This document shows positions 51,010-55,613 of a DNA stretch of 64,000 nt, one piece after another (the first letter of the stretch is position 1; every line of letters begins with the position of its first letter). Position numbers and translations under genes: made by a program. The notes under the pieces were generated by a model. That model was not told the origin of the DNA. It did not search any database and saw nothing but the letters and a program-made list of their open reading frames with translations. Source of the stretch: Arenicellales bacterium (GTDB lineage: Bacteria > Pseudomonadota > Gammaproteobacteria > Arenicellales > Poriferihabitantaceae); contig OZ220708.1 in assembly GCA_965116595.1 (NCBI GenBank), forward strand, positions 169,187 through 233,186, given 5' to 3'.

Positions 51010-52592
51010 AGAAAACCGTAACAATAGACAACAGCGCAATTACCGGCCATGAAACTGAACTGTGGGAAATGGCCGATGCTCTGCGTGGCTCAATGGATGC
51101 GGCTGAATACAAACATGTCGTCCTCGGCCTGATTTTCCTCAAATATATCTCCGACGCCTTCGAGGAACGTCGGGCGGCGGTACTCAAGGAATGGGGCGAA
51201 GATGCTGCCGAAGACCGGGACGAATATATCGCCGAGAACATCTTCTGGGTACCGCCGGAAGCGCGCTGGGCGAATATAAAATCAAACGCCCGGAATCCCA
51301 CCATTGGCCAGGGCGTCGATACGGCTATGACGGCTGTCGAGGACGAAAACCCGGTGCTAACAGGCACTTTGCCGAAGGATTACGCCCGTCCGGCACTCGA
51401 CAAACAGAGGCTTGGTCAGTTAATCGACATGATCAGCAACATCCAGGTAGGCAACGAAGACGCCCGCTCCCGTGATGTACTCGGTCGTATTTACGAATAC
51501 TTCCTGTCGCAATTCGCGAGCGCCGAGGGTAAAAAAGGTGGCGAGTTCTACACACCGCGCTGCGTGGTCAAACTTCTGGTAGAGATGTTGGAACCGTATC
51601 ATGGCCGGGTCTATGACCCGTGCTGTGGTTCGTCCGGCATGTTCGTGCAGTCCATCGAATTCATTCGCGCACATAGCACAGGCAACGGCAATGGCGGTAA
51701 GGCTAAACGTGATATATCAATCTACGGTCAGGAGTCTAATTACACAACCTGGCGGCTGGCCAAAATGAATCTTGCCATTCGCGGCATTGAAGGACAGATC
51801 GCCCATGGTGACAGCTTTCATAACGACCGCCACCCCGATCTCAAGGCCGACTATATCCTTGCCAATCCGCCGTTTAACGTCTCCGACTGGGGCGGAGAGC
51901 GGCTCACGGACGACAAGCGCTGGCAATACGGCGCCCCGCCGAAGGGAAACGCCAACTTCGCATGGGTGCAACACATCGTCCATCATCTGGCGCCGGTCGG
52001 CATTGCAGGCTTCGTGCTGGCCAACGGCTCAATGTCGTCTGCCCAATCAGGCGAGGGCGAGATCAGGAGAAACCTGATCGAAGCGAATCTCGTGGACTGC
52101 ATGGTCGCCTTACCGGGACAGCTTTTCTATTCGACCCAGATTCCCGCCTGCCTGTGGTTTCTGGCGAGAAAGCGCAAGCGGCGGGGTAAGGTGTTGTTTA
52201 TCGACGCACGCAAACTCGGCCGCATGGTGGACCGCACTCATCGCGAACTGACCGATGAAGACATCACCCGCATCACCGATACCTACCATGTCTGGCGTAA
52301 TCACTCCCCCCTTGAGGGGGAGTCACAACCCGCCGAGCCGTCAGGCGATAGCGACTATACCGACATCCCCGGCTTCTGCAGAAGCGCGCCATTGGAGGAA
52401 ATCCGAAAACACGGCCATGTACTGACCCCCGGCCGCTATGTCGGCGTGGAACCGCAAAAAGACGATGGCGAACCGTTCGAACACAAAATGAAACGACTGA
52501 CCGAGCAACTACATACGCAACAAACCGAAAGCGCCCGGCTCGATGCCGCGATTGCGGATAACCTTAAGAAACTGGGGTTTTGGGACAAATGA
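51006..52592 (+). CDS. hsdM: Type I restriction-modification system DNA methyltransferase subunit M
   Basis: The start is at ATG 51006 (MKKTVTIDN...[32 protein letters not shown]). The AdoMet motif DPCCGSGGMF-like ([10 protein letters not shown]) and the catalytic ANPPFN are present. Confidence 0.95.
52302..52354. repeat. Family A repeat, solo copy lying in-frame inside hsdM
   Basis: cactccccccttgagggggagtcacaacccgccgagccgtcaggcgatagcga is translated as [17 protein letters not shown]. This falls between the conserved HsdM segments TDTYHVWR and [31 protein letters not shown]. Confidence 0.85.
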
Positions 52593-52834
52593 CGGTACAC
52601 CAACTGATTCGGCTACTCAAGAACCACCCAGCCGACATGCGAGTCGTCGTCAACGGCTATGAGGAAGGTTACGATGATCTGTCTCCAGAACAGATTTCTG
52701 TTACATCTATCCGCCTGAACACCGGCAGAAGGGACTGGGAAGGATGCCACGGAGATATTGGCGACAAACCGAGTGACCGGATAGACAATTCACCTGTAGT
52801 CGAGGCTCTGATCTTGCGCCGCACATCGAATTGA
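52589..52834 (+). CDS. Hypothetical small protein (81 aa)
   Basis: ATG 52589 overlaps the hsdM stop (ATGA). The stop is 2 nt before the next ORF's ATG. I recognise no motif ([31 protein letters not shown]...). Confidence 0.5.
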
Positions 52835-53274: not shown

Positions 53275-55613
53275 ACCGGACCATCGACATCACCAGCGAA
53301 GAACGTGAGGTTATCCTGAACCTGCTTCAGCGCCACCTGCCCGGCGTAGAGGCATGGGTTTATGGTTCCCGCGCGAAATGGACATCCCGCCCCCAATCCG
53401 ACCTTGATCTGGTGGTATTCACAACCCCGGAGCAATCCCCCAAAATCGGCGACCTGCGGGAAGCATTCGAAGAAAGCAACCTGTCGTTCAGGGTGGATTT
53501 GTTTGTTTGGCACGAAGTTCCAGAACAGTTTCATCAAGAGATCAAGCGGAATCATGGGGTGTTGGCAACAGGGAACGGCAGAACGTTGGGTAGGAGGTAC
53601 TCGGGTGTATCAAAGGAGTGGGTAAGACGAAGGATCGGTACTCTTGGTCAAGTCGTGACTGGAAAAACACCATCGACCGCAGAGAGGTCCAACTTTGATG
53701 GCCCCTATCCCTTCATCACTATTCCCGACCTTGATGGGCGCGTTCTTATTGATAACACCAAGAAAACTTTGTCCGAAAAGGGGGCGGCTGCCCTACGAAC
53801 ATGTCTCCTTCCATCAGGTGCCGTATTGATGTCTTGCATTGCAACAGTTGGAAAGTGTGGTGTTACCACACGGCCAAGCTTCACTAATCAGCAGATCAAC
53901 AGCGTCGTTCCGAGGGGTGATTTGGATTCCCGATTTCTGTACTACGTTTTCACCCAGCTTGGACATGAGTTGGAGTCAGCTGGTGGAGGAGGTACGGTCT
54001 ACACAAATGTCTCAAAGGGTCGATTCTCCGATATTGAAGTTGTTGTCCCGGTTGATCTCCCCGAACAACGCGCCATCGCCCACATCCTCGGCACTCTGGA
54101 CGACAAGATCGAACTGAATCGCCGCATGAACGAAACGCTGGAAGCAATGGCTCAAACCCTGTTCAAATCCTGGTTCGTAGATTTCGACCCCGTCCGCGCC
54201 AAGATGACCCTCAATCACTCCCGCGAACCATCACCATCACTCCCCCCTCGAGGGGGAGTCACATCCCGCGATAGCGGGTGTGGTGGGGGGTATCACTCCC
54301 CCCTTGAGGGGGAGTCACATTCCGCAAAGCGGATGTGGTGGGGGGAACAACCGCCGAAGTCCGCTGACAGCCGATGGGAAAAAGTCAAACGCTCCTACCC
54401 CGAAAAAACCCTGAACCGGGCAAAATCCCTGCGCCACAGCCAAACTGATGCAGAAGGTCTGCTCTGGCACTACCTGCGCAACAAGCAACTGGACGGCTAC
54501 AAATTTCGCCGCCAACAACCCATCGGCCCATACATTATTGATTTCGCCTGCCTGCCCGAAAAACTGCTCATCGAACTGGACGGCGGCCAACACGCGGAAC
54601 AGGAAACCTACGACGAGCAACGCGACCAATTCCTGAAAGATAAGGGATACCAGGTTCTACGCTTCTGGAACAACGAAGCCTTCGATAACTGCTTCGCCGT
54701 ACTGGAACAGATATACCAGGCACTCAATCACTCCCCCCTTGAGGGGGAGTCAAATCCGCAAAGCGGATTTGGTGGGGGGAACAATGAACAAGCACCAGAA
54801 ACCGACATCCCCCCACCGGCTCTCCGGCGGGCTAACGCCCTTGTATCGCCGACTCCCCCTCAAGGGGGGAGTGATTGGACAGTCGAACGCGCCCGTGCAT
54901 ATCTTGACCGGATGGACCCGGAAATTGCCGATTTGTTTCCTGACAGGCTCGTTGACTCTGAGATTGGGGAGATACCGGAGGGGTGGGAAGTAGAAACAGT
55001 TGGTAATCACGTAAAAATTACCAAAGGAAGATCATATAAAAGCGTAGAACTGGAAGAATCTAACACCGCACTTGTGACACTAAAGTCATTTATACGAGGA
55101 GGGGGTTATAAAGAAGATGGTGTTAAAGAATATACAGGACCCTATAAACCAGAACAAATTATTGAGCCAGGCGAGTTAATTATCGCATTAACAGATGTGA
55201 CACAAGCGGCAGAAATAATAGGAAAACCCGCGATCGTCACTCCAAATAATGTTTACACAACGCTTATTGCGTCTCTTGATGTAGCTATTCTTAGACCGAA
55301 TGAACCTGTAATGAAAGAATTTTTCTATGGATTGATGAATACATATCGTTTCCATCGTTATGCTGAAAGTTTTGCTACAGGGACAACTGTGCTTCACCTG
55401 AACTCTAAGGGTATAACGACTTTTGAGTTTGCATTACCAGATATTCAATTATGCAAAGTTTATTCCGATATTACCAAACTGATGCTACGTAAACATGAAG
55501 AAAATACTCATCTTTCAAGAAACCTGGAAGCACTACGCGACACCCTCCTCCCCAAACTCATTTCCGGCGAGCTGCGCGTTGATGACAAAATTGACGTAGA
55601 AGTAGTCGTGTGA
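53265..55613 (+). CDS. hsdS: Single 782-codon ORF: minimal nucleotidyltransferase (MNT, HI0073-like) domain, HsdS TRD1 and central conserved region, in-frame DUF559 cassette, then HsdS TRD2 and C-terminal conserved region
   Basis: The MNT motif is GSRAKWTSRPQSDLDLVVF. The first HsdS half is IGTLGQVVTGKTPST...LPEQRAIAHILGTLDDKIELNRRMNETLEAMAQTLFKSWFVDFDPVRAK. The second half is LFPDRLVDSEIGEIPEGWEV...NLEALRDTLLPKLISGELRV. No stop codon occurs anywhere in this frame between 53265 and 55611. Confidence 0.8.
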   Translation: MGVNRTIDITSEEREVILNLLQRHLPGVEAWVYGSRAKWTSRPQSDLDLVVFTTPEQSPKIGDLREAFEESNLSFRVDLFVWHEVPEQFHQEIKRNHGVLATGNGRTLGRRYSGVSKEWVRRRIGTLGQVVTGKTPSTAERSNFDGPYPFITIPDLDGRVLIDNTKKTLSEKGAAALRTCLLPSGAVLMSCIATVGKCGVTTRPSFTNQQINSVVPRGDLDSRFLYYVFTQLGHELESAGGGGTVYTNVSKGRFSDIEVVVPVDLPEQRAIAHILGTLDDKIELNRRMNETLEAMAQTLFKSWFVDFDPVRAKMTLNHSREPSPSLPPRGGVTSRDSGCGGGYHSPLEGESHSAKRMWWGEQPPKSADSRWEKVKRSYPEKTLNRAKSLRHSQTDAEGLLWHYLRNKQLDGYKFRRQQPIGPYIIDFACLPEKLLIELDGGQHAEQETYDEQRDQFLKDKGYQVLRFWNNEAFDNCFAVLEQIYQALNHSPLEGESNPQSGFGGGNNEQAPETDIPPPALRRANALVSPTPPQGGSDWTVERARAYLDRMDPEIADLFPDRLVDSEIGEIPEGWEVETVGNHVKITKGRSYKSVELEESNTALVTLKSFIRGGGYKEDGVKEYTGPYKPEQIIEPGELIIALTDVTQAAEIIGKPAIVTPNNVYTTLIASLDVAILRPNEPVMKEFFYGLMNTYRFHRYAESFATGTTVLHLNSKGITTFEFALPDIQLCKVYSDITKLMLRKHEENTHLSRNLEALRDTLLPKLISGELRVDDKIDVEVVV
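54214..54885 (+). mobile_element. DUF559 cassette copy 2 with flanking family A repeats, inserted in-frame in the central region of hsdS
   Basis: Two tandem family A repeats (54238-54346) lie on the left. A DUF559 core follows (96/111 aa identical to copy 1 by manual alignment). Repeats at 54728-54780 and 54851-54873 lie on the right. Normal HsdS sequence resumes after about 54885. Confidence 0.7.

Follow-up and report, generated by a model that had tools for sequence, protein, structure and literature searches.

Class I HepT/MntA pairs are defined by the motif RX4HXY in a HEPN protein and GSX10DXD in a minimal nucleotidyltransferase (MNT), and MntA polyadenylylates the tyrosine (PMC7641770; PMC11586414). 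Tested pairs carrying both motifs acted as toxin and antitoxin (PMC7641770). MNT-HEPN proteins in which the two are fused, the FhepTA family, work by oligo-AMPylation (PMC13000451). A HEPN nuclease can also be controlled by a restriction enzyme. The type I enzyme EcoprrI keeps PrrC, an anticodon nuclease whose gene is embedded in its operon (the E. coli prr locus), in a latent state, and inhibition of the enzyme by phage T4 Stp releases it (PMC3710099, PMC3632139). PrrC bears an ABC ATPase at its N-terminus, lacks an MNT partner and is masked by protein–protein contact. As a general proposal, R-M-linked HEPN proteins have been regarded as back-up effectors (PMC3710099). Here we describe a type I R-M operon in which an MNT domain forms the N-terminus of the specificity subunit, HsdS. 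Our literature search found no paper describing an MNT-HsdS fusion; the layout recurs in many bacterial groups yet is apparently unstudied.

The operon lies in a window of 64,000 nt from contig OZ220708.1 of Arenicellales bacterium GCA_965116595.1. All coordinates are positions in this window, and all the features given are on the + strand. The gene order is hsdM, orf81, HEPN, MNT::hsdS, a PD-T4-7-like gene and hsdR, and the 80 best related loci found in species genomes served for comparison. The type I methyltransferase subunit gene hsdM (51006-52592; Pfam N6_Mtase E 4e-107, HsdM_N E 1e-27) contains an in-frame hairpin-repeat unit of family D2 at 52299-52353, and its product is 78% identical to HsdM of one related locus, L001, and carries a net insertion of 12 aa. 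The hsdM stop codon (TGA) and the orf81 ATG overlap in the sequence ATGA. The small protein encoded by orf81 (52589-52834), between hsdM and the HEPN gene, is conserved but of unassigned function. Its family spans 249 database clusters, nearly all of about 81 aa and with a strongly conserved motif, none of which has a Pfam match; orf81 itself matched nothing in Pfam, NCBIfam or PADLOC, and a Foldseek search of the PDB with its AF2 model (pLDDT 69.5) gave nothing at E<=0.001. It is present at the equivalent position in 37 of the 80 related loci.

Downstream of hsdS, a PD-T4-7-like defence gene (55615-56664; PADLOC PD-T4-7 models, E 1.1e-38 and 2e-36; no Pfam match) precedes a remnant of the hsdR 5′ end of about 50 codons (56649-56882). 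In nucleotide alignment to full hsdR, about 135 nt of the remnant (approximately 56676-56808) are some 88% identical to the start of the full-length gene at 60358, and the remnant marks the left-hand boundary of an inserted island. The operon also contains a type II R-M island. The full-length hsdR (60358-63492), encoding the type I restriction/translocase subunit, has Pfam HSDR_N, SWI2_SNF2, ResIII, T1R_D3-like and T1RH-like_C domains and is 56-84% identical to hsdR of related loci.

The HEPN gene (52837-53274) encodes a predicted RNase toxin. The initial annotation had proposed an HI0074-type HEPN protein on the basis of the sequence RIGTAH, and this is borne out by matches to PF08780 (71.6 bits; cut-off 31.8) and to PDB 1JOG (HI0074; E 8e-9) and by the extended motif RIGTAHDY, which conforms to RX4HXY. 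Candidate start codons are TTG 52831, which overlaps the orf81 TGA, and the in-frame ATGs at 52837, 52840 and 52858, the last of which yields a protein of 138 aa, a length typical of homologues.

The HEPN stop codon overlaps by 10 nt the ATG at 53265 that begins the next ORF. The chain from hsdM through the 81-aa ORF and HEPN to MNT by ATGA-type or short overlaps is as first described. This next ORF is open for all of its 782 codons and consists of an HI0073/MntA-type MNT domain (aa 1-100; 53265-53564) followed by HsdS. The MNT domain, also proposed at the outset, is matched by PF18765 (37.6 bits) and PF01909 (27.4 bits), with aa 18-100 aligning to Polbeta/NTP_transf_2, and by PDB 1NO5 (HI0073; E 1.7e-14). 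It contains GS-RAKWTSRPQS-DLD, conforming to GSX10DXD, and a third acidic residue, D78. Residues G34, S35, D46, D48 and D78 are invariant in the fusion homologues and at least 90% conserved in 100 MNT representatives, the nearest among 1.84 billion proteins at 50% clustering. The AF2 model of the domain is of high confidence (pLDDT about 93).

As in SO_3166/SO_3165 of Shewanella oneidensis and HI0074/HI0073 of Haemophilus influenzae, a PF08780 HEPN protein with RX4HXY adjoins an MNT with GSX10DXD, and HI0074 and HI0073 are also the closest solved structures to the Arenicellales pair. From these motif and profile matches, its assignment as an HI0074/HI0073-type HEPN/MNT pair is correct, and it appears to be of the class I HepT/MntA ('type VII') kind, although the NCBIfam equivalog cut-offs were not reached (HI0074, 47.9 bits against 55.8; MntA_antitoxin, 39.5 bits against 60). 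Further differences from class I pairs are that the antitoxin is the N-terminal domain of HsdS rather than a free protein of <150 aa, that the toxin gene comes first, with the 10-nt overlap, inside a type I R-M operon, and that the MNT model has three helices only, without the long C-terminal alpha4 helix. In FhepTA, too, the MNT antitoxin is one domain of a fusion protein, acting in cis or nearby; there it is joined to the toxin itself, whereas here it is joined to the R-M specificity subunit, with the toxin a separate protein. With PrrC-EcoprrI the locus shares a HEPN-superfamily RNase gene inside an hsd operon and, as proposed below, the same logic, but the masking agent here would be an adenylyltransferase domain in one polypeptide with HsdS.

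The linker between MNT and HsdS (aa 101-118, ATGNGRTLGRRYSGVSKE; 53565-53618) contains no stop codon. In relatives it varies in both sequence and length (median 11 aa), and in the AF2 model, in which MNT and HsdS are confident separate domains, it is of low confidence (pLDDT <50 at aa 106-116). Target-recognition domain 1 and the central conserved helix of HsdS follow (aa 119-316; 53619-54212; Methylase_S E 8e-28, aa 117-293). This part is 76-86% identical to stand-alone HsdS proteins that start with MxxEW, and is modelled with a pLDDT of about 95 and a helix at 265-319. Target-recognition domain 2 and the C-terminal conserved helix (aa 538-782; 54876-55613) lie in the same frame, again with no stop, and align with TRD2/CR2 of homologues, including '...LRDTLLPKLISGELRV'; the AF2 model is mostly of high confidence here, apart from residues 594-619 in TRD2, and has a helix at 727-766. 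The frame thus runs stop-free from MNT into HsdS as initially reported, but at 782 aa the ORF is not that of a normal-sized HsdS, and an in-frame cassette at about 54213-54875 had been missed.

That cassette, of 221 codons (54213-54875; DUF559 E 2e-41; PDB 3HRL E 3.7e-30), comprises a tandem pair of 56-nt double-hairpin units (54235-54346), a nuclease-like DUF559 core (about 54363-54728), another such hairpin unit (54726-54782) and an inverted palindrome (54851-54877). In the AF2 model a folded domain (367-488) lies between flanks of pLDDT <50 (330-365 and 490-535). It is missing from most homologues and occurs in frame at the same HsdS site in eight other loci (L003, L004, L007, L009, L018, L029, L040 and L060). 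Ka/Ks values of 0.07-0.20 for the core show that the DUF559 domain is under purifying selection. A second copy (50413-51009; DUF559 E 3e-43), flanked by the same palindromes, lies immediately upstream of hsdM and runs into it; the two copies are 84% identical over 300 nt (family D1). Rickettsia palindromic elements and other MITE-like repeats are short palindromic units inserted in protein-coding genes with the frame intact. Similarly, palindromic units lie in frame within hsdM and hsdS here, and also within the HEPN gene of L007 and an acyl-CoA synthetase gene of L004. Unlike the Rickettsia elements, however, the repeats flank a 120-aa nuclease-like domain under purifying selection, the whole DUF559 unit is translated within the host protein, and it recurs at one HsdS site in different phyla.

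A database search for other MNT-HsdS fusions, suggested in the initial annotation, found many, and ORFs of 500-570 aa combining Polbeta and Methylase_S were common among the closest database proteins. MNT is fused to HsdS in 67 of the 80 related loci, from many phyla, which is more than chance since these are independent genome loci. A HEPN gene lies directly upstream in 70, and the 10-nt overlap of HEPN stop and MNT start is found in 64 of these; the remaining ten loci have no recognisable HEPN gene. Three-quarters of the MNT representatives (75/100) contain a Methylase_S domain, and a PADLOC type I specificity model, PDLC03138, includes the MNT domain at model positions 2-98. In an NJ tree of MNT domains the unfused loci were scattered single leaves beside fused sisters, a pattern suggesting that the fusion is ancestral and has decayed secondarily in these loci. 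The complete plasmid pZMOB01 of a cultured strain, Zymomonas mobilis ATCC 10988 (NC_017180.1), carries an HI0074-family gene, a fused MNT-HsdS gene (WP_014466389.1) and hsdR. An Acetobacter oryzoeni plasmid (NZ_CP042810.1) has hsdM, HI0074, MNT, hsdS and hsdR in the same order but unfused, its MNT being a separate 99-aa protein with a 20-nt gap to hsdS. The two plasmids are 32-53% identical to the Arenicellales locus over the matched region, and orf81 and the DUF559 cassette are both missing from their annotated stretches; the fused gene is called merely 'restriction endonuclease subunit S' in the plasmid records. The fusion is a true one: a linker that is short and variable joins the antitoxin nucleotidyltransferase to the HsdS N-terminus.

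We propose a type VII-like HepT/MntA pair in which the adenylyltransferase antitoxin is tethered to HsdS and the RNase is silent only while intact HsdS is made, a reading whose chances we put at about even. The HEPN RNase would be translated first, with the stop/start overlap coupling its ratio to MNT::HsdS. MNT would adenylylate the tyrosine of the toxin RX4HXY motif and/or hold the toxin on the M2S/R2M2S complex, keeping the RNase silent. As the antitoxin is part of HsdS, control of the toxin would need a continued supply of intact HsdS. Fresh HEPN would go unmodified if the operon were lost, if hsdS were disrupted, or if a phage attacked the restriction complex or host expression, and RNA cleavage and growth arrest would follow. 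At the sequence level, the retained motifs of both proteins speak for the required biochemistry, and PrrC-EcoprrI sets a precedent for such control. Several points count against this mechanism. A type VII antitoxin is catalytic, and tethering is therefore unnecessary for neutralisation; loss of antitoxin alone does not reactivate a modified type VII toxin. The loci without HEPN, the broken active sites of some HEPN copies (L007, L038, L055), the sub-cut-off NCBIfam scores and the missing alpha4 also weigh against it. An HsdS with two CDD superfamilies on a plasmid of Z. mobilis ZM4 was deleted without growth defect (PMC8432527); should this HsdS belong to the present fusion family, its toxin would not be strongly lethal in that strain.

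It is unlikely that the fusion is neutral. In that case an ordinary selfish HEPN/MNT module would have invaded the hsdM-hsdS junction and the MNT stop would have been lost by accident, with no cross-talk to restriction, the fusion surviving through descent and because the cell cannot dispense with the antitoxin. One stop-codon loss would suffice, since the unfused order on Acetobacter plasmids leaves only the 20-nt gap, and the short, variable linker, modelled by AF2 with low confidence, fits this reading. The operon moves horizontally between phyla with 60-85% protein identity, and the high frequency of the fusion may therefore just reflect descent. However, fusion prevails across a clade that is large and diverse and has outlasted extensive swapping of both TRD1 and TRD2, and the unfused members resemble secondary decay. 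The conserved toxin-first order and fixed overlap suggest selection on coupled expression with HsdS.

We consider it improbable that the pair is instead a two-part nucleotidyltransferase with HEPN as its substrate-binding part, modifying an R-M subunit, DNA or RNA, or a phage product and so regulating or extending restriction. HEPN proteins that serve only as nucleotidyltransferase partners typically lose their catalytic residues (PMC3710099), whereas RX4H and the acceptor tyrosine were retained, always as HDY, in 63 of the 70 HEPN homologues; the toxin-antitoxin behaviour of tested pairs with both motifs (PMC7641770) speaks against it too. This alternative draws on the family name 'nucleotidyltransferase substrate binding' in Pfam and NCBIfam, on the unreached curated thresholds, and on the permanent attachment to HsdS and non-canonical gene order, unlike classical HepT/MntA.

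Whether HsdS is also, or instead, translated from an internal start had been raised initially, with TTG 53586 as sole in-frame candidate. That codon is in frame within the linker, but GTG 53559 and TTG 53562 are present as well; they encode V99 and L100 of the C-terminal 'HGVL' strand of MNT, which is conserved as 'HVVL' in relatives. An in-frame ATG, GTG or TTG occurs in or just before the linker in 55 of 63 fusions, and 39 have a loose SD-like word upstream. Most such codons, however, encode the conserved V-L-V at the end of the MNT domain rather than marking a conserved start. None coincides with the point at which stand-alone HsdS begins (MxxEW), and eight fusions have no candidate at all. 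The AGGAGG at 53592-53597 is, as first noted, without a suitably placed in-frame start after it, and it is not conserved. Internal initiation would in any case not prevent synthesis of the full-length fusion, as no stop interrupts the frame. A second product is quite improbable, although some additional initiation at TTG 53586 may occur in this locus, and the comparative data (the related loci, the representatives, pZMOB01 and the lack of a conserved start) favour a physical fusion. A sequencing or assembly indel that removed the MNT stop and hsdS start, a general possibility raised initially and compatible with the large insertion in the ORF and with the lack of a 100% protein match to its exact product, is scarcely credible with the frame open throughout. 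It is refuted for the family, since the fusion recurs in dozens of assemblies made independently, among them complete chromosomes and the finished pZMOB01.

The tethered-antitoxin reading would have the fusion link toxin neutralisation to the specificity subunit. If it is correct, the type I system would be addictive and/or have a second line of defence like that of PrrC-EcoprrI, and an RNA-cutting toxin may be tied to the integrity of the restriction enzyme.

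The 782-aa ORF at 53265-55613 (plus strand) of the window begins with an HI0073/MntA-type minimal nucleotidyltransferase (MNT) domain and continues in the same frame into the type I specificity subunit HsdS. Pfam assigned Polbeta, NTP_transf_2, Methylase_S, DUF559 and MTES_1575 to it; Polbeta and NTP_transf_2 fall in residues 1-100, Methylase_S covers aa 117-293, and there is no stop between MNT and HsdS, as the initial annotation had reported. When residues 1-320 were used as query in a protein search, many proteins of 500-570 aa were recovered with 94-99% query coverage and 42-78% identity, and these bear Polbeta and Methylase_S together. 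An alignment of the junction region of 12 fusions (A2) served as query in a scan of one genome per species, which gave 555 confirmed stretches. All locus counts given here rest on the best 80 of these 555. MNT and HsdS lie in a single ORF in 67 of the 80 loci, and do not in the other 13. A database search for further MNT-HsdS fusions, suggested in the initial annotation, thus found them in these loci, in 75 of the 100 best MNT matches and on a Zymomonas mobilis plasmid.

The matches to the MNT domain come from a search with that domain alone against 1.84 billion representatives, made without a word index, which returned 2764 matches at E<=1e-3, 85 of them at E<=1e-30. Among the best 100 of the 2764, Pfam detected Methylase_S in 75 and DUF559 in 8. 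This clade of MNT domains is therefore mainly HsdS-fused. In PADLOC, positions 2-98 of the type I specificity model PDLC03138 correspond to the MNT domain, so the fused family is already contained in a defence-annotation model; the presence of MNT in this model seems to have gone uncommented so far.

A gene for an HI0074-type HEPN protein, a predicted RNase toxin, lies immediately 5′ of MNT in 70 of the 80 loci. The HEPN stop and MNT start overlap by an identical 10 nt in 64 of these 70, and in the window. Going by record titles, the hosts are metagenome-assembled genomes (MAGs) of Arenicellales, Nitrospira, Vicinamibacterales and other Acidobacteriota, Latescibacterota, Opitutales, Spirochaetia, Alphaproteobacteria, Rhodothermales, Binatia and others, and several names and isolate codes suggest that marine sponge symbionts are among them. 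Protein identities of 60-85% between phyla point to horizontal spread of the operon. In a neighbour-joining tree of MNT domains, those members of the large clade that are unfused stand singly beside fused sisters, as if an ancestrally fused gene had been broken secondarily. One 494-aa database protein (P0104) joins HEPN, MNT and HsdS in one chain; its HEPN C-terminus looks frameshifted, which makes an error or a decaying copy more probable than a true triple fusion. Between the window and one related locus (L004) the MNT domain is 84% identical and the first target recognition domain (TRD1) only 45%. From this difference, the conserved MNT domain and the central helix seem to provide the flanking homology for TRD exchange.

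A sequencing error or pseudogene, including the indel at the MNT/hsdS junction that the initial annotation had proposed to exclude, can be dismissed, since independent assemblies and a finished plasmid show the fusion as well. The second alternative is that HsdS is made separately from an internal start. Stand-alone HsdS relatives start three residues before a conserved Trp ('MGGEW', 'MAGEW'), and in 63 fusions the linker from 'HVVL' to this Trp is variable, with a median of 11 residues. These 63 fusions were searched for in-frame ATG, GTG or TTG codons with a Shine-Dalgarno-like word. The only recurrent in-frame GTG and TTG are the V-L-V codons of the MNT C-terminus, and 8 of the 63 contain no candidate. 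No conserved internal HsdS start thus emerges from these 63 fusions, and of the two possibilities left by the initial annotation, fusion or internal start, the first is upheld by 67 of the 80 loci. In the window, TTG 53586 and the AGGAGG at 53592-53597 were located correctly in that annotation. Its statement that there is no in-frame ATG or GTG, and that TTG 53586 is the sole alternative start, needs correction, as GTG 53559 and TTG 53562 lie at the very end of MNT. An extra internal HsdS product from TTG 53586 may be made at the window locus alone. In the AlphaFold2 (AF2) model, MNT (aa 11-101) has a pLDDT of about 93 and TRD1 (aa 119-262) of about 95, joined by a linker of low confidence (106-116). 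The linker and start survey, together with this model, indicates that the full-length fusion, MNT::HsdS, is the predicted conserved product.

The surrounding genes form a type I restriction-modification (R-M) operon. HsdM (51006-52592, plus strand; HsdM_N E 1e-27, N6_Mtase E 4e-107 in Pfam) contains the N6-adenine methyltransferase domain of a type I system. The complete HsdR (60358-63492, plus strand) contains nuclease, SF2 motor and C-terminal domains (HSDR_N, SWI2_SNF2, ResIII, T1R_D3-like and T1RH-like_C). The HsdS part of the 782-aa ORF has two TRDs, Methylase_S corresponding to TRD1 and TRD2 plus CR2 aligning with homologues, and conserved helices at 265-319 and 727-766 in the AF2 model; it is a putative specificity subunit. 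The HEPN ORF ends at 53274 (plus strand), and its start is ambiguous between TTG 52831 and ATG 52837, 52840 or 52858. Between hsdM and HEPN lies an 81-aa ORF, orf81 (52589-52834, plus strand), with an ATGA overlap with hsdM. Pfam, NCBIfam and PADLOC gave no matches to orf81, PHROGs gave one marginal match (E 0.008), and no PDB neighbour of its AF2 model (pLDDT 69.5) was found at E<=0.001. It belongs to a family of 249 clusters of roughly 81 aa with a tightly conserved motif, and 37 of the 80 related loci have it in the same position, after hsdM and before HEPN.

In the window hsdR is split off from hsdS by two additions. The first is a 349-aa ORF (55615-56664, plus strand) whose PADLOC matches (E 1e-38) are to models of PD-T4-7, a defence system consisting of one gene. 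The second is a 3.5-kb minus-strand island resembling a type II R-M system (56649-60357), inserted at the hsdR 5′ end. Its three genes (56820-59983, minus strand) encode a C5 cytosine methyltransferase, a 553-aa GHKL-ATPase protein matching PADLOC type II REase models (E 3.5e-39), and a 138-aa protein. To the left of the island the start of hsdR is duplicated over ~135 nt at roughly 88% identity, as a short hsdR 5′ remnant (56649-56882, plus strand). With the PD-T4-7-like gene and the type II R-M-like island with its duplicated hsdR flank, the window operon is therefore a small defence island on a type I base.

Relative to most homologues, the window HsdS is interrupted in frame by a DUF559 cassette of 221 codons (about 54213-54875), which follows the central conserved helix ('...FDPVRAKMTLNH') and precedes 'WTVERARAYLD...', ahead of TRD2. 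The cassette consists of two tandem 56-nt double-hairpin units, the DUF559 domain (Pfam E 2e-41; PDB 3HRL E 3.7e-30), a third hairpin unit and the palindrome CTCCCCCCTTGAGGGGGAG in an inverted copy. This palindrome has eight matches in the 64-kb window, seven of which fall in the hsd region. A second copy of the cassette, as a DUF559 ORF (50413-51009, plus strand), lies directly 5′ of hsdM and runs into it, and a solo hairpin unit is found in frame within hsdM (52299-52353), with a net gain of 12 residues. In the AF2 model DUF559 is folded (aa 367-488), and its two flanks of about 40 residues, the hairpin-encoded stretches, have a pLDDT <50. An intein or homing-endonuclease insertion was considered for the cassette; it is not an intein, because Pfam found no Hint splicing domain in the 782-aa ORF.

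The cassette was found in frame at the identical site of MNT::HsdS in eight related loci from different phyla (L003, L004, L007, L009, L018, L029, L040 and L060, at about 7900-8550). In L034 and L036 the cassette has lost its frame, and L054 and L070 retain remnants. More distant DUF559 domains (40-42% identical) lie in frame in HsdM in L027 (2941-3252) and L029 (2681-3013). All 16 tblastn matches are in sense orientation, and in every copy the DUF559 domain begins without a methionine. The Ka/Ks of 0.07-0.20 for the DUF559 core indicates purifying selection. The palindrome is restricted to loci that also have DUF559 (12 of the best 80). When this part of the protein was used as query, HsdS proteins with an embedded DUF559 (PF04480 + PF01420) proved common in their own right: they account for at least 77 of 120 clusters among the matches listed, some with MNT and some lacking it, and extend to unrelated MAGs at about 40% identity. 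We read the insertion as a repeat-flanked nuclease-like cassette, tolerated or selected in frame.

Solo hairpin units were also seen in other genes. In L007 one ('NHSPLEGES...') splits the active-site motif Rx4H of the HEPN gene (6546-7010) without loss of frame. In L004 one lies in frame in an acyl-CoA synthetase gene (2880-4559) that is 89% identical to the window gene at 48598-50394; this gene stands beside the hsd locus, giving synteny with an Arenicellales MAG. At 47010-47349 of the window a 111-nt unit is also repeated 3.1 times in tandem (99% matches); the array is open on both strands, and the unit has a hairpin, 'CATTCCCGCGGAAGCGGGAATC', inside.

The closest solved structure to the HEPN protein is HI0074 (1JOG, E 8e-9), and that to MNT, the first 100 residues of the 782-aa ORF, is HI0073 (1NO5, E 1.7e-14), which bears out the earlier assignment of an HI0074/HI0073-type pair. 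Class I HepT/MntA (type VII) toxin-antitoxin systems consist of a HEPN protein (PF01934 or PF08780) with an RX4HXY motif and a neighbouring MNT with GSX10DXD (Yao et al., PMC7641770). The window HEPN matches PF08780 (71.6 bits) and contains RIGTAHDY; R....HDY is kept in 63 of the 70 HEPN homologues. The window MNT scores above the cut-offs of PF18765 and PF01909, and its G34-S35 is followed, after ten residues, by D46-L47-D48. GS, DxD and D78 are invariant in the aligned fusions and at least 90% conserved in 100 representatives. The HEPN and MNT genes are direct neighbours within an operon. MntA polyadenylylates the motif tyrosine and so neutralises the RNase (Yao et al., PMC7641770), and a Legionella HepT/MntA pair behaves similarly (PMC11586414). 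With both motifs present and conserved, the biochemistry of the window pair is taken to be type VII-like.

The locus differs from class I HepT/MntA in several respects. In place of a small stand-alone antitoxin (<150 aa), MNT forms aa 1-100 of the 782-aa ORF, as a domain of HsdS. The MNT gene is usually 5′ of the HEPN gene (PMC3710099), whereas in the window and related loci the toxin comes first, with translational coupling. The pair sits between hsdM and hsdS, and in the AF2 model MNT has three helices and lacks the long alpha4 helix. Scores also fall below the NCBIfam cut-offs, with 39.5 against 60 for the MntA_antitoxin equivalog and 47.9 against 55.8 for the HI0074 subfamily. HEPN genes are known to cluster with R-M operons, and PMC3710099 goes no further than that.

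The E. coli anticodon nuclease PrrC-EcoprrI is still the textbook example of an RNase backing up a restriction enzyme. There the type I enzyme keeps the nuclease latent until an anti-restriction factor of a phage releases it, a behaviour that is carried over to the window by analogy alone. Unlike PrrC, the HEPN ORF is of 138-147 aa, has PF08780 as its sole domain and carries no N-terminal ABC ATPase. The architecture of MNT::HsdS is solid; its mechanism and biological role we infer. The HEPN toxin would be silenced only during production of intact HsdS. Such silencing could serve addiction to the operon; to our knowledge, type I R-M systems are not regarded as addictive. It could also serve, by analogy with PrrC-EcoprrI, as a back-up abortive response upon attack on the restriction complex.

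Two plasmids from cultured bacteria are informative. On pZMOB01 of Z. mobilis ATCC 10988 an HI0074-family gene (3-392) is followed by a fused 527-aa gene (389-1972), annotated as 'restriction endonuclease subunit S', and then by hsdR. MNT and hsdS are split on an Acetobacter oryzoeni plasmid, which reads hsdM, HI0074, a 99-aa MNT, a 20-nt gap, hsdS and hsdR. In Z. mobilis ZM4 the plasmid HsdSp, which has two CDD superfamilies (cl35887 and cl38903), works as a specificity subunit (GAAGN7TCC), and its deletion caused no growth defect (PMC8432527). This deletion is a possible counter-indication to the toxin model; cl35887 may be the nucleotidyltransferase superfamily, which would make HsdSp a candidate member of the family, and the deletion primers of PMC8432527 do not match the ATCC 10988 locus. 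A neutral, 'frozen' fusion of MNT and HsdS is a serious rival to HsdS-dependent silencing of the toxin.

The type I R-M system, the HI0074/HI0073-type HepT/MntA pair and the general link of HEPN genes to R-M operons are known already. A full-text search found no literature describing an MNT-HsdS fusion, or the in-frame DUF559 cassette. Within the literature found, the conserved covalent fusion with toxin-first, coupled expression is undescribed.

One could go further and read the two findings jointly, which we consider unlikely: MNT::HsdS would make the type I complex both the antitoxin and the sensor of the HEPN RNase, and the DUF559 cassette would be a selfish element of a new kind. A phage might disable the M2S/R2M2S complex or mimic its substrate, perhaps through DNA-mimic or Stp-like anti-restriction proteins, or might stop the supply of HsdS. 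The tethered adenylyltransferase may then no longer silence the toxin, and the infection may be aborted. The cassette may for its part enter hsdS (and hsdM) at a conserved site, keeping the frame and needing no splicing, and be expressed as an extra domain of the host protein. If true, the first part of this reading would generalise the single PrrC-EcoprrI case to a widespread, horizontally mobile 'guarded restriction enzyme'.

The cassette poses a separate question, namely how a nuclease-like domain spreads inside R-M genes with translation kept. As for the fusion, its genes are named just 'restriction endonuclease subunit S', so censuses of toxin-antitoxin and defence systems that look for a small stand-alone MNT miss them. 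In many phyla, the antitoxin of an abundant toxin-antitoxin type, HepT/MntA, is physically joined to the specificity subunit, which provides a direct, testable link of restriction to toxin-mediated growth arrest. With a fused copy in Z. mobilis ATCC 10988 and the split version on Acetobacter plasmids, a tractable organism is available for testing this link.
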